In this document: positions 4,999-61,685 of the stretch, piece after piece | How positions within the stretch are numbered: the first letter of the stretch is position 1 | Layout of the letters: every line of letters begins with the position of its first letter | Made by a program: the position numbers and the translations under genes | Notes under the pieces: model-generated | The model's database searches: none | What the model was told of the DNA's origin: nothing | Seen by the model: the letters and a program-made list of their open reading frames with translations, nothing else | Origin: Alphaproteobacteria bacterium | Lineage (GTDB): Bacteria; Pseudomonadota; Alphaproteobacteria; UBA9219 | Length of the DNA: 64,000 nucleotides | Assembly: GCA_028866275.1 (NCBI GenBank) | Contig: JAGWIK010000009.1 | Coordinates: 8,339-72,338 of the forward strand | Reading direction: 5' to 3'

Positions 4999-5676
4999 TT
5001 GATGAACAAATTTAACTTTAGTCAGCGTCTTATAAGCGAGCTACTCGGCACAGCTTTGTTGCTTGCTGTCGTTGTCGGTTCTGGAATCATGGGGGAGCGG
5101 CTGGCGGGTGGTAATGTTGCTCTTGCGCTGCTTGCCAATACTATTGCGACAGGCGCGGCGCTGGCGGTTCTTATCACAATCTTCGGGCCGATCTCCGGCG
5201 CGCATTTTAACCCCGCCGTGACCTTGGCTTTCTTTCTGAAGCGGGAAATAAATTGCCATACCGTTTTGGTCTATGTCGTAGCGCAGATTGCAGGCGGTGT
5301 GCTTGGCGTCTTTGCCGCGCACATGATGTTTGCCGAACCTGTTTTACAAATCTCGACAAAGCTACGGGACGGGTCGGCCTTGGCTTTTTCTGAATTTGTG
5401 GCGACATTCGGCCTCATGGCAACTATTCTCGGCACGGTACGTTTCAAGCCGGACTTTACGCCTGTTGCTGTTGGGCTTTATATCACCTCAGCCTATTGGT
5501 TTACGGCTTCGACCTCTTTTGCGAATCCCGCCGTGACGATTGCCCGATGCCTGTCTGATACATTCGCGGGAATTGCGCCGTCGTCCGCGCCCGTCTTTAT
5601 CGCGGCGCAGTTCCTGGGCGCGATCGTGGCTACCGCCGTGTTCGGCTGGTTGCTTAGAGAAAGGACTACCTCATGA
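4999..5676 (+). CDS. MIP family channel (aquaglyceroporin-like, possible arsenite channel)
   Basis: Two NPA boxes (HFNPAVT, FANPAVT); six TM helices. Confidence 0.85.
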   Translation: MMNKFNFSQRLISELLGTALLLAVVVGSGIMGERLAGGNVALALLANTIATGAALAVLITIFGPISGAHFNPAVTLAFFLKREINCHTVLVYVVAQIAGGVLGVFAAHMMFAEPVLQISTKLRDGSALAFSEFVATFGLMATILGTVRFKPDFTPVAVGLYITSAYWFTASTSFANPAVTIARCLSDTFAGIAPSSAPVFIAAQFLGAIVATAVFGWLLRERTTS

Positions 5677-6377
5677 CGGCGCGAACTGGACGCTTGCCGT
5701 TTGGCAGAATTATTGTCGTGGCGATCCTGCTGTCGCTGTTTGCGGCGGCATTCGCCTTCGACTTGCCGCATTACCTGACGCTTGATGCTTTGCGGGAACG
5801 GCAAATTGCGCTCAAAGCCTATCAAACGGCTCATCCATCGTTGGTCATAGCTGGGTTTTTTCTGATTTATGTTGCCGCGGCAGCGATGTCTTTCCCCGGT
5901 GCTACCGTGCTGACGTTACTGGGCGGCGCTTTGTTTGGTTTCTGGCAGGGACTTTTCGTGGTTTCTTTTGCCAGCACGATTGGGGCAACGCTGGCTTTTC
6001 TGTTGGCGCGGTATCTGTTGCGCGACTGGATTCAGAAGAAATATTACAAGCAACTTGCGATCCTGAATGCCGGATTTGAAAAGGAAGGCGCGTTTTACCT
6101 GTTCGCTTTGCGGCTCATGCCCGTATTCCCATTCTTTCTGGTCAATATCCTGACCAGCGTGATGCCGATCAAGACCCGCAGCTTCTACGGTGCAAGCCAG
6201 CTTGGCATGCTGCCGGGAACGGCGGTTTATGTTTATGCCGGGACGGAACTGGGTAAACTACAATCCGTGTCAGGTATCGCCTCACCATCGTTGATTGCTG
6301 CCTTTGTGTTGCTGGGGTTGTTTCCCTTGCTTGCTAAAAAAGGCATTTCTTATATTCGTAACCGGAGGCAAGCATGA
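5673..6377 (+). CDS. TVP38/TMEM64 (DedA/SNARE-associated) family membrane protein
   Basis: VTT-domain pattern; overlaps the neighbouring genes. Confidence 0.75.
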   Translation: MTARTGRLPFGRIIVVAILLSLFAAAFAFDLPHYLTLDALRERQIALKAYQTAHPSLVIAGFFLIYVAAAAMSFPGATVLTLLGGALFGFWQGLFVVSFASTIGATLAFLLARYLLRDWIQKKYYKQLAILNAGFEKEGAFYLFALRLMPVFPFFLVNILTSVMPIKTRSFYGASQLGMLPGTAVYVYAGTELGKLQSVSGIASPSLIAAFVLLGLFPLLAKKGISYIRNRRQA

Positions 6378-7813
6378 GCAAATACGACTATAACGTCATC
6401 GTTGTTGGCGCAGGGTCAGCCGGTTTGGTTTCCGCCTACATTGCCGCTACCGTGAAAGCTAAGGTTGCGCTGATTGAAAAGCATAAAATGGGCGGTGACT
6501 GCCTGAACACTGGATGCGTGCCCAGCAAGGCTTTGTTGCGTTCGGCTAAAATGCTGTCTTACGCCAAACGCGCCAAGGAATTCGGCTTTAACCGTACGGA
6601 AGTCGACTTTGACTTCGCCAAAGTGATGGAGCGCGTGCAGTCGGTGATCGCCTCCGTCGCGCCTCACGACTCGGTGGAACGCTATAGCCAACTGGGGGTC
6701 GCATGTATTTCCGGCGAAGCGCAAATTGTCGCGCCGCAAAAAGTGGAAGTGAATGGAAAGACGCTGACAGCGCGGAGCATCATTGTGGCGACGGGAGCAC
6801 GACCTTTGATTCCGCCAATTCCTGGGCTTGATCGGATAGACCATCTGACCAGCGACACGGTGTGGAATCTCCGCGAATTGCCGAAGCGTCTCGTTGTGCT
6901 TGGCGGCGGGCCGATTGGCGCGGAAATGGCGCAAGCTTTTGCGCGCCTTGGTTCCGACGTCACGATTGTCGAAATGGCTTCGCATCTTCTGGTGCGCGAA
7001 GACGCCGAGGTTATTGATCTGATCGCGCAACGTTTCCGCAACGAGGGCCTTACCGTTCTGACCGAACACAAGGCCAAGGCGTTCAGCAACAAGGATGGCC
7101 AGAAGGTTCTGACCTGCGAACACAATGGCAAGGATGTCGAAATTCCTTTCGATCAAATTATCGTCGCCCTAGGACGGCAGGCCAATATCAAGGGATTCGG
7201 CCTGGAGGAATTGGGCGTTAAACTCAGCCCGCGCAAAACCATCGAGGCCGACGCGTTTTTAGAAACCAACATCCCCAATCTTTATGTCTGCGGCGATGTG
7301 ACAGGACCATATCAGTTCACCCATACCGCCGCGCATCAGGCGTGGTACGCTTCCGTGAACGCGCTGTTCTCACCCTTCAAGCGTTTCAAGGTTGATTACG
7401 GCGTCATTCCATGGACGACCTTTACCGATCCGGAAGTCGCGCGTGTCGGCCTCAACGAGAAAGACGCCAAGGCGCAGAACATCCCCTACGAAGTCACGAC
7501 CTACGGCCTCGACGATCTTGACCGCGCCATCGCCGACAGCGAAGCACATGGCTTCGTGAAGGTTCTGACGGTTCAGGGCAAAGACAAAATTTTGGGTGTG
7601 ACCATTGTCGGAACACATGCCGGCGACATTATCCCTGAATTTATCCTTGCGATGAAGCACGGTTTGGGGCTGAACAAGATTCTTGGCACAATCCATATTT
7701 ATCCGACGCTTGGCGAGGCCAACAAATACGCGGCGGGCGCGTGGCGCAAAGCCCATGTTCCAGCCCTTGGATTAGCTGTTCTAAAAGTATTTCATGCATG
7801 GAGAAGGAATTAA
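6374..7813 (+). CDS. FAD-dependent pyridine nucleotide-disulfide oxidoreductase (mercuric reductase / dihydrolipoamide dehydrogenase-like, no NmerA and no C-terminal Cys pair)
   Basis: GAGSAG FAD motif; redox-active CLNTGCVPSK; dimerisation-domain C-terminus. Confidence 0.8.
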   Translation: MSKYDYNVIVVGAGSAGLVSAYIAATVKAKVALIEKHKMGGDCLNTGCVPSKALLRSAKMLSYAKRAKEFGFNRTEVDFDFAKVMERVQSVIASVAPHDSVERYSQLGVACISGEAQIVAPQKVEVNGKTLTARSIIVATGARPLIPPIPGLDRIDHLTSDTVWNLRELPKRLVVLGGGPIGAEMAQAFARLGSDVTIVEMASHLLVREDAEVIDLIAQRFRNEGLTVLTEHKAKAFSNKDGQKVLTCEHNGKDVEIPFDQIIVALGRQANIKGFGLEELGVKLSPRKTIEADAFLETNIPNLYVCGDVTGPYQFTHTAAHQAWYASVNALFSPFKRFKVDYGVIPWTTFTDPEVARVGLNEKDAKAQNIPYEVTTYGLDDLDRAIADSEAHGFVKVLTVQGKDKILGVTIVGTHAGDIIPEFILAMKHGLGLNKILGTIHIYPTLGEANKYAAGAWRKAHVPALGLAVLKVFHAWRRN

Positions 7814-7814
7814 A

Positions 7815-8786
7815 ATGGAAGGAAGCGCATTTATTGCCAGCTTCGGCAAAACGCTAAAAGACCACAACCTCACAATTGAGCGGAAAGCCGTAACGACTCT
7901 ACAAGTCAATATCGGCAAGCTGTGCAATCAGGCTTGCCACCATTGCCATGTCGAGGCGGGCCCCAAACGCACTGAAATCATGGAACGGCGCACCATCGAC
8001 CGTATTCTCGAACTTCTGGCAAACGAACCGCAGATAACGCTGGTGGATATTACCGGCGGTGCACCAGAACTCAATCCGCACTTCCGCGACTTTGTGAAAG
8101 TCCTTCGCAACATGGGTAAAGGCGTGATTGATCGCTGCAATCTTACCGTTCTGTTTGAAGAGGGACAGGAAGACACGGCTGAATTTCTTGCCCAACAGAA
8201 AGTGCAGATCGTCGCCTCGCTGCCCTGTTATCTGGAAGATAATGTTAACAAACAGCGCGGGCAAGGCGTATTCGGCAAAAGCATCGCTGCGCTGGAAAGA
8301 CTGAACGTCTTGGGGTATGGCCGCACGGGAAGCGGATTGGAAATCAATCTTGTTTACAACCCCGTCGGCACGCACCTTCCTCCAGCCCAAGAAAAACTCG
8401 AAGCCGATTATCGCCAGTATCTTTCAGAGAATTACGGCATTACCTTCAATCATCTCTTTACAATCACCAACATGCCGATCAAACGATTTGCCCATATGTT
8501 GGAACGTGATGGTTTTGCTGAGCAATACATGCAGCTTTTGATTGACAATTTTAACGTAGGTGCGGCTCGGCAAGTGATGTGTACGCAGCTTATTTCCATT
8601 GGCTGGGATGGCAAGCTGTATGATTGCGACTTTAACCAGATGCTTGGGATTCCGCTGAATTTCAAATCACGCACACTCTGGGACATTCCCTCGTTCGCGT
8701 CGCTGGATCGCGGTATTGCCTTCGCCGACCATTGCTTCGGATGCACGGCGGGCGCGGGAAGCTCGTGTACCGGTGCCTTGCTTTAA
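7815..8786 (+). CDS. arsS: arsenosugar biosynthesis radical SAM protein ArsS (Cys-containing, not Sec)
   Basis: CNQACHHCH radical-SAM motif; C-terminus CFGCTAGAGSSCTGALL; GGAGAAGG RBS before the ATG at 7815; adjacent to arsM. Confidence 0.8.
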   Translation: MEGSAFIASFGKTLKDHNLTIERKAVTTLQVNIGKLCNQACHHCHVEAGPKRTEIMERRTIDRILELLANEPQITLVDITGGAPELNPHFRDFVKVLRNMGKGVIDRCNLTVLFEEGQEDTAEFLAQQKVQIVASLPCYLEDNVNKQRGQGVFGKSIAALERLNVLGYGRTGSGLEINLVYNPVGTHLPPAQEKLEADYRQYLSENYGITFNHLFTITNMPIKRFAHMLERDGFAEQYMQLLIDNFNVGAARQVMCTQLISIGWDGKLYDCDFNQMLGIPLNFKSRTLWDIPSFASLDRGIAFADHCFGCTAGAGSSCTGALL

Positions 8787-8809
8787 CAATCCGCAACAGG
8801 AGATAAAAC

Positions 8810-9862
8810 ATGACTTCATCCGCCCAAGCCGTACAAAAAGACGTTCAGGAATATTACGGTGAAACACTGCAAAGCAGTGCCGATCTCAAGACCAGCGCCT
8901 GTTGTCCCATCGACAGCATGCCCGTACATTTGCAGCCTTATCTAAAAAAAGTCCACGCGGAAGTGCAGGAGAAATTTTACGGCTGCGGCTCGCCTATTCC
9001 CCAAGCACTGGAAGGCATGACGGTTCTTGATTTGGGGTGCGGCACAGGGCGTGATGTTTATGTTCTATCGCAATTAGTCGGAACAAAAGGCAAGGTGATC
9101 GGTGTGGATATGACCGAAGCGCAGCTCGCTGTTGCGAGGAAACATATCGCCTACCACACGGAAGCCTTTGGTTATCAGAAGCCGAATGTCGAATTTCACC
9201 ATGGCTATATCGAAAATCTCAAGACCATCGGCATTGCCGACACTTCGATTGATATCGTTGTGTCGAACTGCGTTATCAATCTTTCACCAGACAAAGAAGC
9301 TGTGTTCCGCGAGATTTTCCGCGTCCTGAAACCCGGCGGCGAGCTTTATTTCTCCGACGTCTTCACCGGACGGCGCGTGCCGAAAGCCCTGCAACACGAC
9401 AAGGAATTGCTGGGCGAATGCCTCGGCGGCGCGATGTATGTCGAGGATTTCCGGCGCATGTTGCGCAAGATCGGTTGCCTTGATTGCCGGATGATGAGTA
9501 AAGGACGCATTGCGCTCAACGAACCGTCTGTCGAACAGAAGGCCGGTATGATCGACTTTTATTCGATCACCGTTCGCGCCTTCAAATGCGACCTCGAAGA
9601 TATTTGTGAGGATTACGGCCACGTCGTCACTTACAAAGGCACGGTGGCCGAAGCGCCGCATGCCTTCCGGCTTGACGATCATCATCTGTTCAAGACAGGC
9701 ATGCCGGAACGCGTCTGCGGCAATACATGGAAAATGCTGATGGAAACGCGGTTTTCTCCGCACTTTTCTTCCATGGGGGATTTCTCGACCCACTACGGCG
9801 CGTTCGATTGCGCGCCAGCCACAGGAACGGAAAGCAACGCGCCCTCCGGCGCATGCTGCTAA
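8810..9862 (+). CDS. arsM: arsenite S-adenosylmethionine methyltransferase ArsM
   Basis: N-terminal YYGETLQSSADLKTSACCP conserved Cys pair; SAM-binding LDLGCGTG; additional Cys. Confidence 0.8.
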   Translation: MTSSAQAVQKDVQEYYGETLQSSADLKTSACCPIDSMPVHLQPYLKKVHAEVQEKFYGCGSPIPQALEGMTVLDLGCGTGRDVYVLSQLVGTKGKVIGVDMTEAQLAVARKHIAYHTEAFGYQKPNVEFHHGYIENLKTIGIADTSIDIVVSNCVINLSPDKEAVFREIFRVLKPGGELYFSDVFTGRRVPKALQHDKELLGECLGGAMYVEDFRRMLRKIGCLDCRMMSKGRIALNEPSVEQKAGMIDFYSITVRAFKCDLEDICEDYGHVVTYKGTVAEAPHAFRLDDHHLFKTGMPERVCGNTWKMLMETRFSPHFSSMGDFSTHYGAFDCAPATGTESNAPSGACC

Positions 9863-9880
9863 ATAACAACAAGAAGGAAT

Positions 9881-10732
9881 GTGAATATGCTTGGCATTAT
9901 CGGCGGAACCGGATTCTACAAACTCGAAGGGCTTGAGATCATCGAAGAGATGGATGTTTCCACTCCCTATGGCAAACCGTCGGCGCCTTTAGGCAAAGCA
10001 CGTTATGCCGGCAAGGAATTGTTTTTTCTGCCGCGCCACGGCGCGCATCATCAGTTCTTGCCGCATGAAGTCAATTACCGCGCGAATATCTATGCGTTGA
10101 AGCAAGCGGGGGTGCGGCAAATTGTCGGTTTCTCCGCCGTGGGCAGTTTGCGCGAGGAGATAGCACCGGGGGATCTTGCCATTCCCACGCAATATATAGA
10201 TTGGATTAAAGATGGTCGCATCAAGACTTTCTTTGGCAACGGCGTGACGGCGCATGTCTCGACAGCGGAACCCGTCTGCCCGAATCTTGTTAAGGGATTG
10301 GCCGAAGCGGCAGAGCGAATAAATGCAAAGCTTCACACCGGAAAAACATACATCTGCGTCGATGGCCCCCGCCTCGGCACGCGGGCGGAAAGCCATTTCT
10401 TCCGGCAAATCGGCGGCGATCTGGTCGGCATGACGAATGTGCCGGAGGTGTTTCTGGCGCGGGAAGCGCAGATAGCCTACGCGACAGTTGGTATCGCCAC
10501 CGATTACGATTGCTGGAAAGATAACCCCGCCGATCACGCCGACACCGCGACGATCATCGCGCGTTATGGCGCAAGCCTGCAAAAAGCCAACCTGCTGCTC
10601 AGAAACTTTCTTGAGCATGTTTTGCCGGAACCAAGCACGGCAAGCCGCGAGAGCCTGAAAGGTGCAGTGATGACGCCAGATCATGCGCTTTCGGCAAAGG
10701 CAAAAGAACTGCTGGCTGTGTTAAGAGCATGA
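9881..10732 (+). CDS. mtnP: S-methyl-5'-thioadenosine phosphorylase-like (PNP/MTAP family)
   Basis: IIGGTGFY N-terminus and GMTNVPE motif of MTAP. Confidence 0.8.
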   Translation: MNMLGIIGGTGFYKLEGLEIIEEMDVSTPYGKPSAPLGKARYAGKELFFLPRHGAHHQFLPHEVNYRANIYALKQAGVRQIVGFSAVGSLREEIAPGDLAIPTQYIDWIKDGRIKTFFGNGVTAHVSTAEPVCPNLVKGLAEAAERINAKLHTGKTYICVDGPRLGTRAESHFFRQIGGDLVGMTNVPEVFLAREAQIAYATVGIATDYDCWKDNPADHADTATIIARYGASLQKANLLLRNFLEHVLPEPSTASRESLKGAVMTPDHALSAKAKELLAVLRA

Positions 10733-19431: not shown

Positions 19432-20007
19432 ATGACATATCCAGTTCACACAGAAACAACTGCACCCGAAAACGCGCGCGCCATTCTGGCGCAAGCGAAG
19501 GGAAAATTCGGCTTTATCCCTAATCTTTTGGGGACGATGGCCAACGCGCCGGCTTTACTCAAAAGCTATCTTACCCTGGCGCAAATATTTGAAGAGACTT
19601 CTCTAACTCCAACAGAACAGCAGATTGTTCTGTTGGCGGCCAGTTATTCGAACGGCTGCACCTATTGCATAGCAGCGCACACGGTCATTGCCGGGATGAA
19701 GAATGTGCCAGCCGAAGTCGTAGCTTCGCTACGGAACAATAAGCCGATCAAGGATGCAAAGCTCGAAGCCCTGCGTTTGTTTGCTTTTGATGTTACCGAA
19801 AAGCGTGGGCATCCTTCCGAAGAAAGCCTGAAACGTTTTCTGGCTGCCGGATATACACCAGTGCAAGTACTGGAAGTTGTTCTGGGCGTTGGCTTTAAAA
19901 CCTTGTCCAACTACACCAACCATCTGACAAAAACTCAGCTCGATTCCGCTTTTTCCAACGCAATCTGGACGGAAGCAAAGCAAGAATGCGCGTGTTGCTG
20001 CGCTTAG
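19432..20007 (+). CDS. carboxymuconolactone decarboxylase / AhpD-like protein with Cys-rich C-terminal tail (KQECACCCA)
   Basis: AhpD-core CxxC-type motif CTYCIAAH; C-terminal ECACCCA. Confidence 0.7.
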   Translation: MTYPVHTETTAPENARAILAQAKGKFGFIPNLLGTMANAPALLKSYLTLAQIFEETSLTPTEQQIVLLAASYSNGCTYCIAAHTVIAGMKNVPAEVVASLRNNKPIKDAKLEALRLFAFDVTEKRGHPSEESLKRFLAAGYTPVQVLEVVLGVGFKTLSNYTNHLTKTQLDSAFSNAIWTEAKQECACCCA

Positions 20008-20019
20008 GATGCCGGAGGG

Positions 20020-20721
20020 GTGTATCCCATGAACTGGCTTGCCAGTAACTGGAACGATCTGTTGCCGTCTCCATGGTCGAGCGCGGCTCTGACGCTTGTC
20101 TCCATTTTCTGTGGCGCCATCGTTGGCATCGAGCGCGAGAGAAAGGAGAAATCTGCAGGGCTACGCACGATGATTTTGATTAGCGCAGGCTCAACCGTCT
20201 TTACGCTCGCCTCCTTCGTTTTGGCTGGAAATCAAGGCGATCATGGGCATGTCGCCGCCCAGATCGTCAATGGTATTGGCTTCCTCGGCGCAGGAGCCAT
20301 ATTACGCGGCACCTATGGCGTAAGAGGCATGACGACGGCGGCAACGATCTGGGCTGTCGCTGCGATGGGCATGGTGGTGGGGACCGGCTACGCTGGCGCA
20401 GGACTGGGGTTGGCGGGTCTCATTTTGACCGTATTGGTCAGTGCCACGGCACTGGATAATCGGTATCTAGGCCCCTGCAAACTTGCCCAAGTGCTTGTTT
20501 CCTATGACGCGATGGGCGGGAAGACATCCGTCAAACTTGATCGCATTCTCGACGATCACCGTATCGCGAAACAGGTGCGCAAAACGCAATCCTTGGAAGA
20601 CGGCTCGTTTCAGTTGCGCCTGACCTACTGCAACGTTCACAAACATCACAAAGAATTCTTGCCTCAAATTGCCGAAATGCCTGAAGTGCGTGAGATACGC
20701 AAAGAGGCGCATCCTTCTTAA
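20020..20721 (+). CDS. mgtC: MgtC/SapB family membrane protein
   Basis: N-terminal MgtC signature LVSIFCGAIVGIERE. Confidence 0.8.
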   Translation: MYPMNWLASNWNDLLPSPWSSAALTLVSIFCGAIVGIERERKEKSAGLRTMILISAGSTVFTLASFVLAGNQGDHGHVAAQIVNGIGFLGAGAILRGTYGVRGMTTAATIWAVAAMGMVVGTGYAGAGLGLAGLILTVLVSATALDNRYLGPCKLAQVLVSYDAMGGKTSVKLDRILDDHRIAKQVRKTQSLEDGSFQLRLTYCNVHKHHKEFLPQIAEMPEVREIRKEAHPS

Positions 20722-21089
20722 CAACACCCCGTTGCTTCGACCGGAGCCGATTGACCGCTAACAAAATCTTTGTACGCTTTGAAAGCTTTTAACGCCCACA
20801 TCTCGCCAACGCAGCCGCCCATGACGGAGGCCGTTGCCAAAAATTCACCCAGCTCGTTTTGTGTCGCACCAAGCTGGACGGCCTGTTGCACGTAGAATTT
20901 AAGGCATGGCTCGCAACGGGCGGATATCGACCACAGGATCGCCGATAACGCCTTGAAGCGAGCTGGCACAGCCCCTTCCGTGAAAACAACGTCCTGCCGC
21001 ATCTGATGTATATGTTTGGTTGTGCCGTTTGTGATCTGTCCAAACTCGGCAAGCAACCCTAAGGCTGGATCAATATCTGTTAGAGACAT
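20718..21089 (-). CDS. small carboxymuconolactone decarboxylase (CMD) family protein ending in GCC
   Basis: CEPCLKFY motif of the CMD/AhpD core; immediately downstream of merP on the same strand. Confidence 0.6.
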   Translation of the reverse strand: MSLTDIDPALGLLAEFGQITNGTTKHIHQMRQDVVFTEGAVPARFKALSAILWSISARCEPCLKFYVQQAVQLGATQNELGEFLATASVMGGCVGEMWALKAFKAYKDFVSGQSAPVEATGCC

Positions 21090-21103
21090 GGTGTTTACTC
21101 CCT

Positions 21104-21382
21104 TTATGGTTTCACGGATGATGGATAACCTGCGTTTTCGGTGGCCTGAGTTAACGCCGAAATGGTGGTCTTGGCGTCATCGAAGGTTACAACGGCTTCC
21201 CGATTCTCAAACCTGACCTCGGTTTTTTCGACGCCAGAAACTTTCGAGAGGGCTTTCTTGACCGTGATCGGGCAAGCGGCACACGTCATGCCGGGCACCG
21301 ATAGAGTGACTGTTTGAGGAGCAGCCCATGCGGGGACGCTAAATGTGGCGAGAAGCATGATAAGAATGGCGCGTTTTTTCAT
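21104..21382 (-). CDS. merP: periplasmic mercury-binding protein MerP
   Basis: Signal peptide plus HMA motif GMTCAACP. Confidence 0.85.
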   Translation of the reverse strand: MKKRAILIMLLATFSVPAWAAPQTVTLSVPGMTCAACPITVKKALSKVSGVEKTEVRFENREAVVTFDDAKTTISALTQATENAGYPSSVKP

Positions 21383-21394
21383 GATAACTCCTAT

Positions 21395-21742
21395 TCAGAT
21401 GAACAATGGCAACACGTAGGGAAAGCCGATTGCAATCGCCACAAGAGCAGCCACAATCCAAAAGAGGCCTTTATAAGCTGCCCTGACTTGAGGCACGGCG
21501 CATATTTCACCGGGCTTGCAGGCAGTGATTGGACGGAAAATGCGGCGATAAGCGAGAAAGAGCGCGATGAGAGCTGCCCCAATGAAAATGGGGCGATATG
21601 GCTCCAGAACGGTCAGATTGCCGATCCACGCCCCGCTGAATCCCAGCGTGATGAGAACCAAAGGTCCAAGACAACAGGTGGAGGCCAGAATTGCCGCTAA
21701 CCCTCCGGCAGTCAGCGCGTTTTTTTCGTTTAACAAAGCCAT
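21395..21742 (-). CDS. merT: mercuric transport protein MerT
   Basis: 115 aa, 3 TM, CCLGP motif in the first helix. Confidence 0.8.
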   Translation of the reverse strand: MALLNEKNALTAGGLAAILASTCCLGPLVLITLGFSGAWIGNLTVLEPYRPIFIGAALIALFLAYRRIFRPITACKPGEICAVPQVRAAYKGLFWIVAALVAIAIGFPYVLPLFI

Positions 21743-21771
21743 AATTATTCCTATTTGTTAGCCAGTTCTTA

Positions 21772-21802
21772 TCCTAAACCCTGCACCATGGTGCAGGATC
21801 AA
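21772..21802 (-). promoter_or_regulatory. MerR-type promoter/operator for merTP: -35 TTGATC, 19-bp spacer holding an 18-bp perfect palindrome CCTGCACCATGGTGCAGG (21780-21797), -10 TTAGGA
   Basis: Read directly on the minus strand; the long-spacer architecture with a dyad is the hallmark of MerR-regulated promoters. Confidence 0.55.
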
Positions 21803-21814
21803 GAGGGATTTTAC

Positions 21815-22213
21815 ATGACGGCCACATTGACCATAGGCAGCCTCGCGCAAGCCGCAGGCGTAAACATTGCGACCATCCGTTACTACCAGCGGCGCGGTTT
21901 GCTGGAAGAGCCGGACAGGCCGTTACGTGGTTATCGCCGCTATCCTGTTGACATGGCGAAGCGGGTTCGTTTCATCAAGCGCGCGCAGGCGCTTGGCTTT
22001 ACATTGGAAGAAATCATCGCGTTGATGCGGCTTGAAAAAATGAATTGTTGCGCCGATACCAGAATGCTGGCGACGCACAAGGTAGCCTCTATCAAACAGA
22101 AACTTGCCGATCTTACGGCAATGAAGAAAGCACTGATGCAACTAATAAACCAATGCGATGCCGGAAACCGGCGCGGGAAATGTCCGATTATCGATCTTCT
22201 GGGGCATGACTGA
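21815..22213 (+). CDS. merR: Hg(II)-responsive MerR family regulator
   Basis: N-terminal HTH; Cys residues at the positions of the Tn501 MerR C82/C117/C126 metal-binding site; AAGAGGG RBS; divergent from merT. Confidence 0.85.
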   Translation: MTATLTIGSLAQAAGVNIATIRYYQRRGLLEEPDRPLRGYRRYPVDMAKRVRFIKRAQALGFTLEEIIALMRLEKMNCCADTRMLATHKVASIKQKLADLTAMKKALMQLINQCDAGNRRGKCPIIDLLGHD

Positions 22214-22332
22214 ATAAAGGGAGACAAAATGTGCAAGAAACTCGGCCCAAGCTTCCATGTTAAGCGATCGTAAAGCATGAAGGGGTAAAATCCTGACTTG
22301 TCCGAAAGGGTTAATGGGGTTACCCTAAGCGC

Positions 22333-22725
22333 ATGAGGAAGTCGTTTCTTGCCAGATTTATGGCTCTCTTGTTGAGCTTGTCGCTGGTCATCGGTCAAGG
22401 GCCGTTGAGCATGGCGGTGGCTATGCCTGCGATTAACATGGATCAGATGTCCGTGATGGCAAATATGTCTGGAATGGGCATGACGGCTTCGGCCTCCGAC
22501 GGGACTCAATCCGAAGAAAGAGACTGCTGTTCACAATCGACCAAGGATCGCGCCATGAAAGGCGGCATGTGCGGTGCGTGCTGCGTGGCGATGGCTCAAA
22601 TAGGCATGCTGCCTGCTCAATTCCCAGTGCCCATCCAGTATGGCATCAGCCAGTTTTATGGAATGACGGACACGTCTGCGATCAGCAGAAATACACCACC
22701 GGATCCACCCCGGCCTAAAGTCTAA
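22333..22725 (+). CDS. Met/Cys-rich secreted protein, candidate periplasmic metal-binding protein
   Basis: Signal peptide; Met-rich stretch MDQMSVMANMSGMGM; Cys cluster CCSQ...MCGACCV; immediately upstream of the RND tripartite genes. Confidence 0.45.
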   Translation: MRKSFLARFMALLLSLSLVIGQGPLSMAVAMPAINMDQMSVMANMSGMGMTASASDGTQSEERDCCSQSTKDRAMKGGMCGACCVAMAQIGMLPAQFPVPIQYGISQFYGMTDTSAISRNTPPDPPRPKV

Positions 22726-22862
22726 ATCCCCACAATCGAACGCTGCGAATGCGTTGCCGTTCATTGAGTGATCGGTGCGCTTGTCCGTATGCGCTTCCTT
22801 GATGCTCGACCTTAAACATTGGTGGTCTGCTGGAAACAGATTGCCGCAAAAGGGGGATAACC

Positions 22863-24053
22863 ATGATCCGGATATTCAAATTAGTCCTGCTTGTTTTGTC
22901 GATAACGATCGGCACGGCAAGCGCGCCTGCGGTGGCTGATGACGGAGGTAAAGGCAAGGTTCTCTTTTACCGTGCTCCCATGAGTTCCGATGTCTCGCCA
23001 ACTCCCAAAAAGGACGAAATGGGGATGGATTACATCCCCGTCTATGAAAGTGATGCGAAAGAAAAGGTCGGTACGGTAAAATTAAGTGCCGAACGCATCC
23101 AGAAACTTGGTGTGCGGACAGAAGCCGTTGAACGGCGCGATATAACGCATCCTGTCCACGCGCTTGGAACCATCCAGATTGACGAAACGCGCCAGACGGT
23201 TATCGCGCCGCGCTTTGAAGGATGGATTCAAAAACTCTCGGTCAACGCTACCGGCCAAAAGGTCAAAAAAGGCGATGTGCTGTTTGACTTCTACAGCCCC
23301 CAGTTGCTCCAGATCGAAAACGAGTATCTTGTCTCCCGTTCCGATATGCCAGCCATGAAGAATAGTGGCGGTTCTCTTGAAAAACTGCGAACTCTGGCTG
23401 TTTCAGAAGAAGAAATTCAGCGGTTGCAGCGCGATAAAACCGCCAGCAACAGCATAGCCATTCGCGCTCCTGCCGATGGCACGGTTATGGAAAAAACCGC
23501 CATCGAAGGCATGAAGTTTTCGGCTGGCGATACGCTTTACCGGCTGGCCGATCTCGGCAATGTGTGGGTTGTCGCCAATGTCTTTGAACATGACTTGTCG
23601 AGTATTGTAGTCGGCCAGCCCGTAAAAGTTACGATCCACGCTTATGAAGGTAAGTTCTTTGAAGGCAAAGTTGAGTTTATTTATCCCGATCTTAACAAGG
23701 ACACGCGCGCTGCCAAGGTGCGTATTGAGTTACCTAACGCGGATGAACTGTTTCGAAAGGATATGTTTGTCGATGCGACGATTGATGTGAAAGAAACCGA
23801 TCATGTGCTAGCCGTTCCGGTTTCGGCGGTGCTGAACAGCGGCAAACGGCAGAGCGTTCTGGTTGATTTGGGTGACGGGAAGTTCCAGCCCCAATCCGTC
23901 AAAACCGGCAAACGTGGCGGTGATTATGTTGAAATTCTCGATGGGTTGAAGGAAGGTGATCGCGTCGTTACATCCGCCAACTTCCTGATCGACTCCGAAA
24001 GCAATCTACGCGCTGCTTTGCAAAGCTTTACTGCACCGGAGGTCAAGCCATGA
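22863..24053 (+). CDS. RND efflux periplasmic adaptor (CusB/CzcB family)
   Basis: Signal peptide; HlyD/biotinyl-lipoyl-like and beta-barrel patterns; overlaps the downstream pump gene. Confidence 0.85.
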   Translation: MIRIFKLVLLVLSITIGTASAPAVADDGGKGKVLFYRAPMSSDVSPTPKKDEMGMDYIPVYESDAKEKVGTVKLSAERIQKLGVRTEAVERRDITHPVHALGTIQIDETRQTVIAPRFEGWIQKLSVNATGQKVKKGDVLFDFYSPQLLQIENEYLVSRSDMPAMKNSGGSLEKLRTLAVSEEEIQRLQRDKTASNSIAIRAPADGTVMEKTAIEGMKFSAGDTLYRLADLGNVWVVANVFEHDLSSIVVGQPVKVTIHAYEGKFFEGKVEFIYPDLNKDTRAAKVRIELPNADELFRKDMFVDATIDVKETDHVLAVPVSAVLNSGKRQSVLVDLGDGKFQPQSVKTGKRGGDYVEILDGLKEGDRVVTSANFLIDSESNLRAALQSFTAPEVKP

Positions 24054-27000
24054 TCGCCCGCATCATCCGCTGGTCGGCGGAGAACAAGTTTCTTGTTCTT
24101 TTGGCGACACTCTTTATCACCGCATCCGGTATCTATGGTGTCATTCATGTGTCATTGGACGCTATTCCCGATCTTTCGGACGCGCAGGTTATTATTTACA
24201 CCGAATATCAAGGACAAGCCCCGCAGGTTGTTGAAGATCAGATAACTTACCCCCTCACCAGCGCCCTTATCAGCGTCCCGCATTCCAAGGCTGTGCGTGG
24301 CCTGTCCATGTTCGGCGCATCCTTCGTCTATGTTATTTTCGAGGATGGAACCGATATTTACTGGGCGCGTAGCCGGACGCTTGAATATCTGAACTCCATC
24401 TCCGGTCGCTTGCCGCAAGGCGTTACGCCGTCTTTAGGGCCGGATGCTACGGGCGTTGGTTGGGTTTATCAGTATATCGTTGTCGGAGCCGAAAAAACTT
24501 TGGCCGAATTGCGTGGGTTGCAGGATTGGACGTTGCGTTACGGCCTTGCACGCGCCGAAGGCGTGGCCGAAATTGCCAGCGTTGGCGGTTTCGTTAAGCA
24601 ATATCAAGTTGTCGTTGATCCACTCCGCTTACAAGCCTACGGCATTTCTTTGTCGGCGGTGACGCAAGCCATCAAACAAAGCAATCGCGATGTCGGTGGA
24701 CGCTCCTTGGAAATGACCGAAACCGAATATCTGGTGCGCGGGCGCGGCTATTTGCACGATCAATCCGAGCTGGAACAAATCGCGCTGCGTAGCACCGACG
24801 GCACACCTGTCTTATTGCGCGATGTAGCGAGCATTGAACTTGGCCCCGATGAACGGCGCGGCCTGACCGAATATAACGGCGAAGGCGAAGCGGTTGGCGG
24901 CATTGCGTTGCAACGTTTCGGACAAAATGCGCTTGATGTCATAAAAAATGTCAAGGCCCAGATCGAAACTATAAGACCCAGCCTGCCGGAAGGCGTCAGC
25001 ATCAAACCGGTCTATGATCGTTCCGCTCTCATCTACCGCGCTATTAAGAATCTTGACCGCACGTTGATCGAAGAAAGCATTGTCGTCGCGGTTGTATGTT
25101 TTCTGTTTTTACTGCACGCGCGTAGTGCTCTGGTCGCCATCCTTATGTTGCCGATCGGCGTGTTGCTGGCTTTTGCCGCAATGTATGCGGTGGGGATAGG
25201 CTCCAATATCATGAGTCTCGGCGGCATCGCCATTGCCATCGGCGCGATGGTCGACGCGGCCATCGTTATGATCGAGAACGCCCACAAACATCTTGAACGC
25301 GCCGCGCCGGACGAAAGCAGATTCAAAGTTCTGGTCGATGCGGCGTGCGAGGTCGGGTCATCGCTGTTTTTCAGCCTCCTAATTATTACGGTTTCATTCT
25401 TGCCGATTTTTACGCTTGAAGCGCAGGAAGGGCGGTTGTTCCGGCCTCTGGCTTTGACCAAGACCTTCGCTATGGCTTCAGCAGCCTTGTTGTCGGTGAC
25501 GCTGGTGCCTGTATTGATGACTCTGCTCATTCGCGGACGAATCACGCCGGAAAACAAAAACCCGATCAATCGTGGACTGATACGGATGTATCGGCCTGTC
25601 ATCGCCACGGTTCTACGCTACCGAAAAACGACTATCGCGCTGGCTTTGGCTTTATTGCTGGCTTCGGCCTATCCAGCCACTCAGATCGGTTCTGAGTTTA
25701 TGCCAAACCTCAATGAAGGTACGCTGCTTTTCATGCCGACGATGTTACCGGGGATTTCAATCACCAAGGCGGCTGAGCTGTTACAAACCCAGGACCGCAT
25801 CATCAAGTCGTTTCCCGAAGTCGAAAGCGTGTTCGGCAAATCAGGCCGCGCCGAAACCGCCACAGACCAGGCGCCGACGGAGATGTTCGAAACCAATATC
25901 AATTTGAAGCCGCAGGATGAATGGCCGCAAGGCATGACGCTCGACAAGCTGATTTCCGATATGGACGGGGCGCTGCAGCTTCCCGGTGTCAGCAATGCGT
26001 GGACGCAGCCCATTCGTAACCGTATCGATATGCTTTCGACCGGTATCCGGACGCCTTTGGGCATCAAGGTGTTCGGCAAGGATTTGGCGCAGATCGAAGA
26101 TGCCGCCCGACAGATCGAAAGAGTCCTGCACACAATTTCTGGCACGTCGAGCGCTTATGCCGAGCGTGTGACGGGTGGTTACTATCTTAACATCGACCCC
26201 GACCGCATGGCTCTGGCGCGTTACGGACTGACCATTAGCGATATTCAGGATGTCATCTCAACGGCGCTTGGCGGCGAAATGATTACGACTACCGTTGAAG
26301 GCCGCGAGCGCTATGGCGTTAATGTACGGTATCCGCGTGATTTTCGTTCTGACCCACAAGCGATTGCCGAACAGGTTTTGGTTCCTATCGCCTCCGGGGG
26401 CATGATCCCGTTGGGGCAAGTTGCGCATATATCGTTGTCGCAGGGGCCATCTTCCATCCGTACCGAAAACGCGCAACTGGCTGGCTATATCACCATCGAC
26501 ATTCATGGCCGTGATATTGGCGGCTATGTCGTGGAGGCCAAGAAAGCCCTGCAAGAGAAGGTCAAATTGCCAACCGGCGTTTACCTCGTCTGGAGTGGGC
26601 AGTTCGAATATATGCAGCGCGCGATGGCGAAGCTGGAAATCGTTGTGCCGGTGACGCTGCTCATTATTTTTATGCTGCTTTACCTGAATTTTAGGCGAAT
26701 GACGGAGGCATTGATTGTTTTTATGTCCCTGCCGTTTTCATTAATCGGCGGTCTGTGGCTGATGTACGCGCTACAATTCAACTTTAGCGTTGCCGTTGCC
26801 GTTGGCTTTATCGCGCTCGCTGGCGTAGCGGCGCAAACAGGCGTGGTGATGCTGGTCTATCTCGACCACGCCTATGGGAAAATGCGCCTTGCCCGTCAAG
26901 GCCAGCCGATAACGACCGGCGATCTTTATGCCGCGATCATGGAAGGCGCTGTCGAACGTGTGCGTCCCAAAATGATGACCGTCAGCGCGATCATGGCAGG

Positions 27001-27166
27001 GCTTTTGCCAATTATGTGGAGCAACGGGACGGGTTCGGAAGTCATGCAACGTATTGCTGTGCCGATGCTCGGCGGCATGGTGTCGTCAACCTTGCTGACG
27101 CTGATTGTCATTCCTGCCGTTTATGCGCTCGTAAAACGTCCAAGCGTTACGGAGATAGCCCCATGA
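24050..27166 (+). CDS. heavy-metal efflux RND pump (CusA/CzcA family)
   Basis: 1038 aa, 12-TM RND with two large periplasmic loops; HME-type N-terminus. Confidence 0.9.
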   Translation: MIARIIRWSAENKFLVLLATLFITASGIYGVIHVSLDAIPDLSDAQVIIYTEYQGQAPQVVEDQITYPLTSALISVPHSKAVRGLSMFGASFVYVIFEDGTDIYWARSRTLEYLNSISGRLPQGVTPSLGPDATGVGWVYQYIVVGAEKTLAELRGLQDWTLRYGLARAEGVAEIASVGGFVKQYQVVVDPLRLQAYGISLSAVTQAIKQSNRDVGGRSLEMTETEYLVRGRGYLHDQSELEQIALRSTDGTPVLLRDVASIELGPDERRGLTEYNGEGEAVGGIALQRFGQNALDVIKNVKAQIETIRPSLPEGVSIKPVYDRSALIYRAIKNLDRTLIEESIVVAVVCFLFLLHARSALVAILMLPIGVLLAFAAMYAVGIGSNIMSLGGIAIAIGAMVDAAIVMIENAHKHLERAAPDESRFKVLVDAACEVGSSLFFSLLIITVSFLPIFTLEAQEGRLFRPLALTKTFAMASAALLSVTLVPVLMTLLIRGRITPENKNPINRGLIRMYRPVIATVLRYRKTTIALALALLLASAYPATQIGSEFMPNLNEGTLLFMPTMLPGISITKAAELLQTQDRIIKSFPEVESVFGKSGRAETATDQAPTEMFETNINLKPQDEWPQGMTLDKLISDMDGALQLPGVSNAWTQPIRNRIDMLSTGIRTPLGIKVFGKDLAQIEDAARQIERVLHTISGTSSAYAERVTGGYYLNIDPDRMALARYGLTISDIQDVISTALGGEMITTTVEGRERYGVNVRYPRDFRSDPQAIAEQVLVPIASGGMIPLGQVAHISLSQGPSSIRTENAQLAGYITIDIHGRDIGGYVVEAKKALQEKVKLPTGVYLVWSGQFEYMQRAMAKLEIVVPVTLLIIFMLLYLNFRRMTEALIVFMSLPFSLIGGLWLMYALQFNFSVAVAVGFIALAGVAAQTGVVMLVYLDHAYGKMRLARQGQPITTGDLYAAIMEGAVERVRPKMMTVSAIMAGLLPIMWSNGTGSEVMQRIAVPMLGGMVSSTLLTLIVIPAVYALVKRPSVTEIAP

Positions 27167-28557
27167 AAAAGTCTTGGCACATCATATCACTCATCGGGAT
27201 CACGATTCTTTCCGCCTGTGCGATGGGTTCTGATTATCAGCGTCCATCTATTGAAATCCCCCTCTCTTACAAGGAAGATTACGGCGAATGGCGACAGGCC
27301 GTACCGCAAGATGAAAATGATCGCGGCGCGTGGTGGTCGATCTATCACGACTCCGTTCTTGACGATCTGGAACAACAGCTTGTTCTATCGAACCAAAATC
27401 TAAAAGCTGCCGAGGCCGCCTACCGCCAAGCCAACGCAGTAACAGACGAAACACACAGTGCCTTGTTTCCATCCCTGACGCTGAATTCATCAGCTGGACT
27501 CCAAAAGGGAACGATGCCGACTCCTGTAGCTGCCGATAGTCTCTATGGCTCAGCTTCATGGACACTGGATGTATGGGGACACATCCGGCGTGGGGTCGAA
27601 AGCGACGAAGCCAAAGCACAAGCCAGCAGTGCCGATCTCGCTGCGGCCAAACTGTCGATGCAAGCAGCCTTGGCAACCAATTATTTTGATCTTCGCGCTC
27701 AAGACGAACTGAAACGCCTCTATGACCAGATGGCGGAGGTTAATCACAAAGCCTTGGAACTTGCACAACGGCACTACGACACTGGCATTGGCGATTTGAC
27801 CGCTGTTTTAGCCGCGCAGTCGCAACTTGAAGACGTGCAATCTCAATCCATCAACACCAGCATTCGTCGTGCAAAGCTTGAACACGCCATTGCCGCACTG
27901 GTTGGCAAAACACCTGCTGAATTCTCTTTGCCGCCGGAACAATTTTTCGATGCTGTGCCAGAGATACCTGTGGGCTTGCCCTCGGCATTACTAGAACGCC
28001 GCCCTGATATTGCATCATCCGAACGCATGGTGGCAGCGGCGAATGCCCAGATTGGCGTTGCAAAAGCGGCGTGGTTTCCTGACCTAACGCTTTCAGCATC
28101 ATCTGGTTATACCAGCATGGCGTTGGGTAAATTGCTGCAAATCTCCAACAGTTTCTGGGCGTTTGGCCCGACCTTGGCTGAAACCTTATTCGATGGCGGA
28201 GCGCGTGAAGCCCGCGCAAAAAAGGCCAACGCCGCTTACGATCAAAGCGTTGCCAATTACCGGCAAAGCGTTCTGACTGCTTTCCAGCAGGTAGAGGATA
28301 ATCTTGCTGCCTCACGCATCCTGACCGAACAACAGAAAGTCAAAGAAAAATCCGTTACCCATGCGCGAACCATCGAACGCCTTATGGCGCATCACTATAT
28401 GGACGGGCTTGAATCCTACAGCAACGTCCTGATGGCAAAAATCGCCAGCCTTGAGGCCGAACAATCCCTGTTGTCGATCCGCCGAGAACGTTTGGAGGCC
28501 AGCATAGGGCTTGTTCAGGCTTTGGGCGGCGAGTGGGAGCGTAGCCATAAAGATTGA
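27163..28557 (+). CDS. RND efflux outer-membrane lipoprotein (NodT/CusC family)
   Basis: ATG at 27163 overlaps the cusA stop (ATGA); GGAGA RBS; lipobox LSAC. The ORF-track 5' extension to 27016 overlaps the pump gene. Confidence 0.85.
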   Translation: MKKSWHIISLIGITILSACAMGSDYQRPSIEIPLSYKEDYGEWRQAVPQDENDRGAWWSIYHDSVLDDLEQQLVLSNQNLKAAEAAYRQANAVTDETHSALFPSLTLNSSAGLQKGTMPTPVAADSLYGSASWTLDVWGHIRRGVESDEAKAQASSADLAAAKLSMQAALATNYFDLRAQDELKRLYDQMAEVNHKALELAQRHYDTGIGDLTAVLAAQSQLEDVQSQSINTSIRRAKLEHAIAALVGKTPAEFSLPPEQFFDAVPEIPVGLPSALLERRPDIASSERMVAAANAQIGVAKAAWFPDLTLSASSGYTSMALGKLLQISNSFWAFGPTLAETLFDGGAREARAKKANAAYDQSVANYRQSVLTAFQQVEDNLAASRILTEQQKVKEKSVTHARTIERLMAHHYMDGLESYSNVLMAKIASLEAEQSLLSIRRERLEASIGLVQALGGEWERSHKD

Positions 28558-61292: not shown

Positions 61293-61685
61293 TTATCCGG
61301 CCTGAAATCCAAACCGCGTTCGCTGTTCATGCCACAGCAAGGGAAAAGGCTTGAGAAGATCGAGAACACGCAGGCCTTTTGGCTGCTGTCCATCGAGGAT
61401 CGCCAGCTTGATGTCGGGAGCAAGAAGGGCAAGCCGCAGAACGCGACACACATATGTGTGCGAGATTTTCATCTGAGTGGCCAGTTCTTCGGCTGATTTC
61501 ATTTTTCCTAAAAAGAGAAGTTTTTGCCATGCATGAGCGCGCGCCAAGACAAGGATCAGGTGATCATTTTCTTCCGGCTCGATTTGTGGCAGTGAGGTTG
61601 CATTCGGCAGAATAATGCGCGTGCGACCGCTCTTGCGCGTTAGGTTGATGGGAATATGCACGGTGAGCGGCGATTGTTTCTTCAT
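61293..61685 (-). CDS. small protein co-transcribed downstream of the serine recombinase (ATGA overlap)
   Basis: Overlap 61682-61685. Confidence 0.3.
   Translation of the reverse strand: MKKQSPLTVHIPINLTRKSGRTRIILPNATSLPQIEPEENDHLILVLARAHAWQKLLFLGKMKSAEELATQMKISHTYVCRVLRLALLAPDIKLAILDGQQPKGLRVLDLLKPFPLLWHEQRTRFGFQAG

Follow-up and report, generated by a model that had tools for sequence, protein, structure and literature searches.

A putative CutF-like exported leader peptide heads a cusBAC-type efflux operon in an uncultured alphaproteobacterium

How can a copper and silver efflux pump respond to metal in the periplasm when no regulator of the usual kind is encoded beside it? This question is raised by a metagenome-assembled genome (MAG) of an Alphaproteobacteria bacterium (GenBank assembly GCA_028866275.1, contig JAGWIK010000009.1), of which we analyzed a stretch of 64,000 nucleotides (nt), hereafter the window. 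All coordinates below are those of the window unless a locus is named. Here a small open reading frame (ORF) of 130 amino acids (aa) heads an operon encoding a periplasmic adaptor, a pump, and an outer-membrane lipoprotein. In Escherichia coli both CusF and the CusRS two-component system are encoded adjacent to the cus genes, whereas among the 30 ORFs that we scanned between 3.6 and 28.6 kb there was no response regulator, histidine kinase, ECF (extracytoplasmic function) sigma factor, or CusF. The original prediction for this locus, made from the sequence alone, had already pointed out that no two-component regulator and no CusF is adjacent, and had proposed that the small protein may be a novel periplasmic metallochaperone or sensor for the pump. 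We read the 130-aa ORF as a cis-acting, co-translationally exported leader peptide of the CutF/CruR kind that serves as the metal sensor for cusBAC, and we put the probability of this reading at roughly 0.55. Of the two words proposed earlier, sensor is probably the right one and chaperone most likely is not.

The leader ORF, a putative CutF-like exported arrest peptide, lies on the plus strand at 22333..22725, beginning with an ATG and closing with a stop codon at 22723-22725. Its protein starts with MRKSFLARFMALLLSLSLVIGQGPLSMAVAMPAINMDQMSVMANMSGMGMTASASDGTQSEERDCCSQSTKDRAMKGGMCGACCVAMAQIG, ends with NTPPDPPRPKV, and contains 15 Met and 5 Cys. The N-terminus (MRKSFLARF followed by MALLLSLSLVIG, with a putative cleavage site between AVA and MP) is basic and hydrophobic, and a signal peptide is predicted at residues ~1-30. 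It is followed by a Met-rich run, MDQMSVMANMSGMGM (residues 36-50, 22438-22482), a CC pair (residues 65-66, 22525-22530), and the motif C80-G-A-C-C84 (residues 80-84, 22570-22584), which can be read as CxxxC and also as CxxCC. The polyproline tail P122-P-D-P-P-R-P128-K-V (22696-22722) forms the C-terminus. The ORF with its signal peptide, Met-rich run, and CC...CGACC cluster is thus real and as first described.

In the public record the same gene, KGI37_05045, is a "hypothetical protein" of 117 aa whose start lies 13 codons downstream, and the leader protein has no match in Pfam or NCBIfam at E <= 0.1. Both facts could be taken to mean that the ORF is spurious or an RNA element only, the conserved unit being the non-coding 5' leader of the cus operon. 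However, the protein is conserved down to 31-40% identity in its relatives, with invariant Cys and Pro positions while the codons vary, and an open frame with a fixed C-terminal length is kept in 28/28 members. Between the window and its closest relative the differences at the three codon positions number 20, 14, and 32, and this excess at the third position indicates that the leader region is coding. A spurious ORF is therefore barely credible. The ATG at 22333 is backed by the family alignment, and the later annotated start removes the positively charged n-region of the signal peptide (22333-22371).

It is instructive to see how far this leader is distributed. A k-mer-seeded homologue search returned three proteins, one of which was record KGI37_05045 itself, and an exhaustive profile search of 1.84 billion cluster representatives (clusters at 50% identity) yielded ~24 clusters, 16 of them at E <= 1e-10. 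The family is rare. More loci were collected by scanning genome contigs with a degenerate DNA pattern for PDxPPPK[AV]-stop and filtering the matches by hmmsearch; JGI (Joint Genome Institute) metagenomes, searched with one family alignment, contained no related loci. Every member is from a metagenome or from a MAG labelled Proteobacteria or Alphaproteobacteria, and their lengths range from 96 to 148 aa. Their alignment opens with a signal peptide that closes on GQG; a variable Met-rich stretch, CC(P)xxSxK, and C-x3-C with AA..Q..LP behind it come next, and the tail LPPDxPPPKA, which in the window reads PPDPPRPKV, completes it. C65, C80, and C84 are nearly invariant, P123, P126, and P128 are invariant in 25 sequences, and the Met-rich region is the least conserved part of the protein. 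Most of the 28 members have 45-47 aa between the last Cys and the C-terminus (range 42-47), while the N-terminal halves differ by tens of residues. Such a fixed distance between the Cys motif and the stop codon is what an arrest-peptide model requires, and it is hard to explain for a chaperone.

Could the product nevertheless act as a protein in its own right? The mature peptide of ~100 aa might be a periplasmic sponge or chaperone for Cu(I)/Ag(I) (or Hg), like CusF, SilE, and PcoE, feeding CusB/CusA. SilE and PcoE are Met-rich periplasmic proteins encoded together with Cu/Ag efflux genes, and the leader resembles CusF of the E. coli cusCFBA operon in being Met-rich, putatively periplasmic, and encoded with such genes. 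Its Met and Cys content, its export signal, its position beside CusB, and the lack of CusF among the ORFs scanned would all suit a chaperone, and a leader role and short-lived metal buffering are mutually compatible. However, CusF is a folded beta-barrel (PF11604) with neither a Cys cluster nor a polyproline tail. No CusF domain was detected in the leader protein, nor any other domain, by Pfam and NCBIfam at the same threshold, and the AlphaFold model of the leader has no strands. This model, built from a shallow alignment of 25 sequences, has a mean pLDDT (predicted local distance difference test) of 57.6 and a pTM (predicted template modelling score) of 0.26. It places helices only at residues 3-21 (the signal peptide, pLDDT ~85) and 77-91 and leaves the remainder without a confident fold, so that it gives no support to a folded metallochaperone. 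These results answer the family and structure check that the original prediction had proposed for the small protein. Moreover, a chaperone would need neither the fixed distance from Cys to stop nor the sequence complementary to the Shine-Dalgarno (SD) site that we describe at the stop codon below, and the Met-rich region varies most while the tail, the Cys spacing, and the flanking non-coding elements, which are the hallmarks of an arrest peptide, are the most conserved. CutF, the analogue studied by experiment, is quickly broken down once exported and works solely in cis (PMC9973294). A metallochaperone is thus unlikely, and the released leader peptide is probably short-lived rather than a structural chaperone.

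What, then, is the nearest known parallel? The CutF/CruR class comprises short upstream ORFs with exported products that carry a Cys motif and, ~45 residues further on, a proline-containing arrest motif at the C-terminus; their nascent chains sense copper and control the next gene in cis (PMC9426467; PMC9973294). Bordetella pertussis CruR (PMC9426467) and Rhodobacter capsulatus CutF (PMC9973294; 10.1101/2025.02.05.636593) belong to the DUF2946 family. In CutF, copper prolongs the polyproline stall, which melts a stem-loop hiding the SD of cutO (PMC9973294; 10.1101/2025.02.05.636593). In CruR (Bp2923), copper relieves the stall, which leads to Rho-dependent termination and switches expression off (PMC9426467). 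The spacing from CxxC to RAPP is ~45 residues in more than 2000 DUF2946 proteins (PMC9426467), and the corresponding distance in CutF is 45 aa (PMC9973294). The commonest neighbours of the CutF-like class are OEP, ACR_tran, and HlyD_D23 (PMC9973294).

Judged by the rule set of PMC9973294, the leader ORF has the right size (130 aa, below 150), a PP within the last 15 residues, an N-terminal export signal, a Cys motif, and a same-strand neighbour, cusB, 137 nt downstream. Like CutF of R. capsulatus cutFOG, it is the small, putatively Sec-exported first ORF of a metal operon, with CxxxC and an upstream Cys, a polyproline motif ~45 residues after the Cys motif, an SD-complementary sequence before the next gene, and the same expected polarity, in which metal turns a detoxifying function on. 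It differs from CutF in the downstream genes (a multicopper oxidase there, a CusB/CusA pump with its outer-membrane factor (OMF) here), in its additional Met-rich segment and CC pair, and in that its candidate anti-SD spans the stop codon, whereas CutF has a compact stem-loop. With CruR it shares the export signal, a Cys motif, a proline-containing C-terminal putative arrest motif at ~45 residues, the long intergenic region, and the first place in copper operons. In contrast, CruR carries CxxC and RAPP, regulates a TonB-dependent importer, and can dispense with both its signal peptide and elongation factor P (EF-P). Compared with the DUF2946 motifs, the window protein has CxxxC/CxxCC and PPDPPRP-KV rather than RAPP; 38-41 residues intervene before the PP pairs and 46 before the C-terminus, so that the layout is alike but the motifs do not agree letter for letter. 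SecM, VemP, and MifM are arrest peptides as well, but they monitor secretion activity rather than metal and use other arrest sequences.

At the level of families, weak matches to PF19650 (DUF6153) were seen in 11/25 relatives (best 2.2e-5) and to PF11162 (DUF2946) in 6/25 (best 6.9e-4). The leader ORF is CutF-like by architecture and is not a proven DUF2946 member. Its family is a distinct, rare subfamily of the known CutF-type class. Exported, Cys-rich, Pro-tailed ORFs heading cus-, czc-, and sil-type operons for resistance-nodulation-division (RND) pumps have already been described as CutF-like (PMC9973294), so the leader is not novel as a kind, as had been supposed. Four of its features, namely the promoter abutting the ATG, the candidate anti-SD that takes in the stop codon, the Met-rich segment, and the YtkA-like partner, were not found in the descriptions of CutF and CruR in PMC9973294 and PMC9426467.

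CusD, SilD, and CzcI have been named as relatives or network members of CutF (PMC9973294). In Cupriavidus metallidurans they resemble the leader by position, each being a small exported ORF that heads cusCBA, silCBA, or czcCBA, but there the gene order is C-B-A and here it is B-A-C. CzcI offers a further way to understand the leader, as a periplasmic protein that quenches or gates the assembled pump post-translationally and so protects the cell against over-export. CzcI is a small periplasmic protein whose gene immediately precedes czcCBA; it reportedly quenches the activity of CzcCBA for Zn and Co (PMC10127602), and it has been grouped with CutF-like proteins (PMC9973294). However, CzcI and CzcI2 lack the C-terminal proline motif (PMC9973294), which is invariant in the leader family, and no fold is predicted for the leader. 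We regard a CzcI-like function as very unlikely.

The genes downstream suggest which metal is to be expected. The original prediction had placed the ORF directly before adaptor, pump, and outer-membrane lipoprotein genes, and the domain matches bear this out; all three genes lie on the plus strand. The CusB-like periplasmic adaptor of 396 aa (22863..24053) matches PF16576 (HlyD_D23) at 4.8e-71, whereas its match to the equivalog-level CusB model NF007303 (2.5e-52, 178 against a cut-off of 390) is below the cut-off. Its N-terminal segment contains Met40, Met53, and Met55, which may resemble the metal-receiving methionines of E. coli CusB. The pump of 1038 aa (24050..27166), of the heavy-metal efflux RND type, scores 1240 bits with TIGR00914 (CusA/CzcA; cut-off 701). 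Among solved structures E. coli CusA is by far its best match, at 1231 bits where ZneA reaches 572, and M562/M612/M661 of the pump align with M573/M623/M672, the Met triad of CusA (chain 3t51_A). By sequence, the pump is CusA-like, not CzcA-like, and of the Cu(I)/Ag(I) type, and its Met triad agrees with these ions being the signal that the leader would read. The third gene (27163..28557) encodes a NodT-family OMF lipoprotein of 464 aa (TIGR01845, 386 bits against a cut-off of 210; PF02321), with its true start at ATG 27163 and the lipobox LSAC. The order is thus B-A-C, adaptor, pump, and OMF, and the coding overlaps of 4 nt between successive genes (24050-24053 and 27163-27166) fit translational coupling.

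From the motifs, conservation, synteny, spacing, promoter pattern, and complementarity observed at these loci we would build the following mechanism, in which the steps from export through metal binding and stalling to the polarity and read-out of control are inferred. Transcription would begin at the operon's own sigma-70-type promoter and give a leaderless mRNA, with a start placed by the promoter pattern, and the signal peptide would direct the nascent chain to the Sec translocon. When the ribosome reaches PPDPPRP-KV-stop, C80xxxC84 would stand ~42-48 residues from the peptidyl-transferase centre, with the CC pair and the Met segment further out. Going by the observed spacing, and by CutF for the geometry, the Cys motif would then lie just beyond the ribosome tunnel and SecY, facing the periplasm. 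When metal is absent, pulling by the translocon, folding or disulfide formation, and EF-P would allow the ribosome to finish and leave, and UAA-AUCCCC with the CCN-rich proline codons would stay paired with the cusB ribosome-binding site (GGGGAU...AUG-AUCCGG). Cu(I) or Ag(I) on thiolate and thioether ligands would prolong the arrest at the polyproline or at the stop codon. The stalled ribosome would cover or unwind the anti-SD, cusB would be translated, and cusA and the OMF gene would follow by translational coupling. Periplasmic Cu(I)/Ag(I) would be sensed through Cys ligands, and probably through Met ligands also.

The read-out step can be compared with the RNA between the leader and cusB. 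The stop codon and the C-tract after it, UAA-AUCCCC (22723..22731, plus strand), form the putative anti-SD. In the family the consensus after the stop is U-C-C-C-C-C-A-A-A-A, which is free of G and position-specific: 10/13 loci have four or more C among the first 7 nt after the stop, against 6.5% of other intergenic windows (naive p = 3e-10). Most family loci have GGGGAU(W)A as the downstream SD, and the window has GGGGGAU (22852-22858), within the SD and start region at 22852..22871 on the plus strand, and the cusB AUG stands at 22863. Of 166 ten-nt windows, the stretch at the stop codon pairs best with the cusB SD (-11.2 kcal/mol). The same duplex scan of 14 loci put the stop-codon window at the top or close to it (rank 0-5 of ~165) in six and within the top 10% in four more, and in three other loci the best anti-SD lay in the PPP codons, 17-20 nt upstream. 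In several loci the complementarity takes in the stop codon itself (UAAUCCC/GGGAUUA in L004 and L057); the corresponding pair in the window is AUCCCC/GGGGAU. The minimum free energy and centroid folds of the window pair 22726-22731 with 22853-22858, and also 22699-22705 (CCGGAUC, the Pro-Asp-Pro codons) with 22865-22871 (GAUCCGG, from the G of AUG). The intergenic region itself (22726..22862, plus strand, 137 nt) contains internal hairpins, including CUGGAAACAG at ~22831-22840, and has no match in Rfam.

The same arrest peptide might be read out at the level of transcription, as in CruR: a ribosome stalled at the polyproline or the stop codon would keep Rho off the C-rich beginning of the intergenic region, and a stall prolonged by metal would avert premature Rho-dependent termination ahead of cusB instead of uncovering the SD. 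With 85-153 nt in the family loci (measured to the YtkA-like gene or CusB), the intergenic region is long, like the 162-nt cruR-bfrG region with its demonstrated Rho-dependent termination (PMC9426467). A conserved, C-rich, G-free tract begins at the stop codon, no intrinsic terminator is predicted, and the unmasking of the SD in silico is unconvincing, as detailed below. On the other side, the rut-like excess of C over G that we sought in the intergenic interior is absent (C 0.275, G 0.271), which leaves no obvious rut site beyond ~6 nt, and the C-tract is specifically complementary to the downstream SD, in several loci with the stop codon included. The polarity of CruR, in which metal relieves the stall and expression goes off, would also be wrong for an efflux pump. 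A Rho-dependent read-out is a serious alternative, if a rather improbable one.

Several results weigh against the CutF-like leader peptide with a translational read-out. The window protein scores only 12.3 bits (E = 0.29) with PF11162, below the gathering threshold of 23.7 bits, and hhalign against other ORFs with the PDxPPPKA tail aligned the signal peptide only; with hhalign, too, the leader signal peptide pairs with those of other CutF-like ORFs. The tail of the window, PPDPPRP, differs from the PPP of CutF and most relatives. Among the triplets that stall ribosomes in an EF-P-dependent way, PPD and DPP rank with the stronger ones, and if this holds here, PPDPP would be a plausible substitute for PPP. 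The intergenic 137 nt exceed the length typical of CutF-like loci (under 100 nt) and come nearer to that of CruR. The whole-region fold of the window is no stabler than shuffled sequences (z = -0.24), and pairing of the SD with the 3' zone of the leader does not exceed that of dinucleotide shuffles of this C-rich zone, because proline codons are intrinsically C-rich and the shuffles pair with a G-rich SD almost as well. Masking of the ribosome footprint in silico lowers the mean paired probability of the SD from 0.71 to only 0.63-0.65, and in the window it raises it from 0.66 to 0.72-0.78. RNAalifold found no consensus pairs among 14 intergenic regions; indels shift the register of the anti-SD/SD helix between loci. 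The thermodynamic case for SD unmasking is weak, this step resting on positional conservation and on analogy, not on energetics, and the mechanism as a whole is assigned to the leader family by analogy.

If the leader controls cusB after transcription, then we can ask: What controls transcription of the operon itself? A putative sigma-70-type promoter lies at 22298..22326 on the plus strand (-35 TTGTCC at 22298-22303, a 17-nt spacer, and -10 TACCCT at 22321-22326) and ends 6 nt before the ATG. The pattern TTGnnn-N17(18)-TAnnnT ending 6-8 nt before the ATG recurs in 13/15 family loci, against a background of 0.3% (naive p ~2e-31), while a stricter consensus promoter scan of the window gave no promoter. 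There is no SD before the leader ATG. Together with the position of the promoter this makes a leaderless or nearly leaderless mRNA probable, its transcription start being placed by the promoter pattern. In the three closest loci, the window, L001, and L002, the ~75 nt that precede the ATG equal the coding sequence in conservation, which drops farther out. A block upstream of the -35 (22258-22297, GTTAAGCGATCGTAAAGCATGA..GGGTAAAATCCTGAC) is nearly invariant in these three loci. It could be an UP element or the binding site of an unknown regulator; were it a regulator site, the operon would not be purely under post-transcriptional control.

The original prediction had suggested control by the upstream MerR or by an ECF-like system. 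The ECF-like system has no candidate among the ORFs scanned. The merR gene (21815-22213; TIGR02051, above cut-off) does lie directly upstream of the leader ORF on the same strand, but it is adjacent in the window only, while most family loci carry a promoter of their own. Upstream neighbours vary, L001 having a phosphoribosyltransferase-like gene there and L002 a P1B-ATPase, so merR adjacency is specific to the window genome. MerR-activated promoters typically have a spacer of 19-20 nt, unlike the 17-nt spacer here. A perfect 7-4-7 palindrome, CCTGCAC-CATG-GTGCAGG (21780-21797), lies in the merR-merT promoter region and not upstream of the leader. Given also the unconserved merR neighbourhood, we rejected MerR control of the pump. 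The promoter at the ATG and the unconserved upstream neighbours indicate a regulatory unit that travels with its operon. It is possible, but doubtful, that the whole forms a self-contained metal switch of ~530 nt that works without a transcription factor, in which a constitutive promoter, a leaderless mRNA, a Met/Cys-rich exported arrest peptide that reads periplasmic Cu(I)/Ag(I), and a stop-codon anti-SD gate an RND pump; arrest or termination at the leader's own stop codon would then control translation of the pump directly.

The comparison of gene neighbourhoods was extended to the relatives. Wherever the neighbours could be read, the leader ORF comes first on its strand, and it heads CusB/CusA operons there as well; conservation upstream of orthologous RND operons, on which the original prediction had staked its claim, therefore holds. 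In L003, L004, L010, L052, and L057 the order is leader, YtkA-like gene (~135 aa), CusB-like gene, and CusA-like gene. In L076, L107, L121, and L032 the leader is followed directly by adaptor and pump, as in the window. The contigs of L001, L007, and L011 stop soon after an ORF of ~135 aa, which is YtkA-like in L001 and without a Pfam match in L007 and L011. In L006 (2516-7036) adaptor and pump form a single ORF of 1506 aa, with HlyD_D23 at residues 108-311 and ACR_tran at 413-1476, which is either a genuine fusion or an assembly frameshift.

Most relatives have a YtkA-like gene between leader and cusB, and the window does not. The first 20 residues of the window CusB (MIRIFKLVLLVLSITIGTAS, 22863-22922) are identical at 11/20 positions to the signal peptide of the YtkA-like protein in L001 (1281-1340), and the window intergenic region is 74.5% identical to that of L001. 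Taken together, these sequence comparisons suggest that a deletion in the window fused the module of leader, intergenic region, and signal peptide to cusB.

The tail of the leader is met in other settings, too. The exact PDxPPPKA-stop tail recurs in L014, L019, L060, L070, L096, and L105 (Acidobacteriota and others), in L061, L091, L101, and L115 (Novosphingobium), and further in L089, L073, L068-L072, L081, and L100. It is borne by many otherwise dissimilar small Cys/His-rich exported ORFs from distant phyla, and also by DUF3579 proteins of Variovorax and Acidovorax that look cytoplasmic. Among the exported ORFs with this tail, 4/16 have a promoter directly at the ATG. Judging from these sequences, the PDxPPPKA tail may be a widely reused arrest module. 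On the Roseibium aggregatum plasmid NZ_CP045619.1 (L132), an unannotated ORF at 5929-6357 has an export signal, CC.H.SK, KCGADC, and the tail ENRPPRSY, and sits between a heavy-metal P-type ATPase gene and an L,D-transpeptidase gene 63 nt downstream. It resembles the window ORF only marginally (26.6% identity, E = 10; the sole tblastn plasmid match).

The surroundings of the operon in the window are rich in detoxification genes. The merR gene belongs to a mer-like module without merA (20718-22213), which includes divergent merT (21395-21742) and merP (21104-21382) and, alongside them, an AhpD/CMD-family protein ending in GCC (20718-21089). Given this adjacent module, the leader peptide might read Hg(II) too. 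Beside the module lie an MgtC-family gene (20020-20721) and, at 19432-20007, the gene for a second CMD/peroxidase-related protein, whose last residues are CACCCA. The Cys pairs at the C-termini recall the metal-handling Cys/Sec pairs of NCBIfam selenoprotein models, to which the matches are weak. Farther upstream lie genes for a TetR regulator, GST, MAPEG, P450, and a fatty-acid hydroxylase. An arsenic-type cluster (4999-10732) comprises a MIP channel, a VTT/DedA protein, a pyridine-nucleotide disulfide oxidoreductase, a methyltransferase, a PNP-family phosphorylase, and a protein with radical-SAM and DUF3641 domains, the domain pair of arsenosugar biosynthesis. The identification of the oxidoreductase (6374-7813) as MerA was rejected, as the C-terminal Cys pair is absent. 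After this cluster come GT2, DUF2064, DUF547, P450, and fatty-acid hydroxylase genes. On the other side, a prophage (28576-63076) abuts the 3' end of the pump operon. It encodes endolysin, tail, tape-measure, major head, portal, and large terminase proteins, two DNA methyltransferases, and a large serine integrase at 61682-63076, and the GC content climbs from ~0.53 to ~0.59 across it.

If our interpretation of the leader is right, a Cu/Ag pump without CusRS would still respond to periplasmic metal, and the sensor would be the nascent leader peptide. Translational sensing across the membrane by the CutF/CruR class, so far demonstrated for one oxidase and one importer, would extend to RND pumps. 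Were the doubtful self-contained switch real, it would give the first demonstration of CutF-type control in a tripartite efflux pump. The leaderless mRNA and the stop-codon-embedded anti-SD would make it a distinct design, and the switch would travel as a module with cusBA in uncultured Alphaproteobacteria. For annotation there is a further lesson: such ORFs are left unannotated or given a wrong start, and they are easily taken for metallochaperones.

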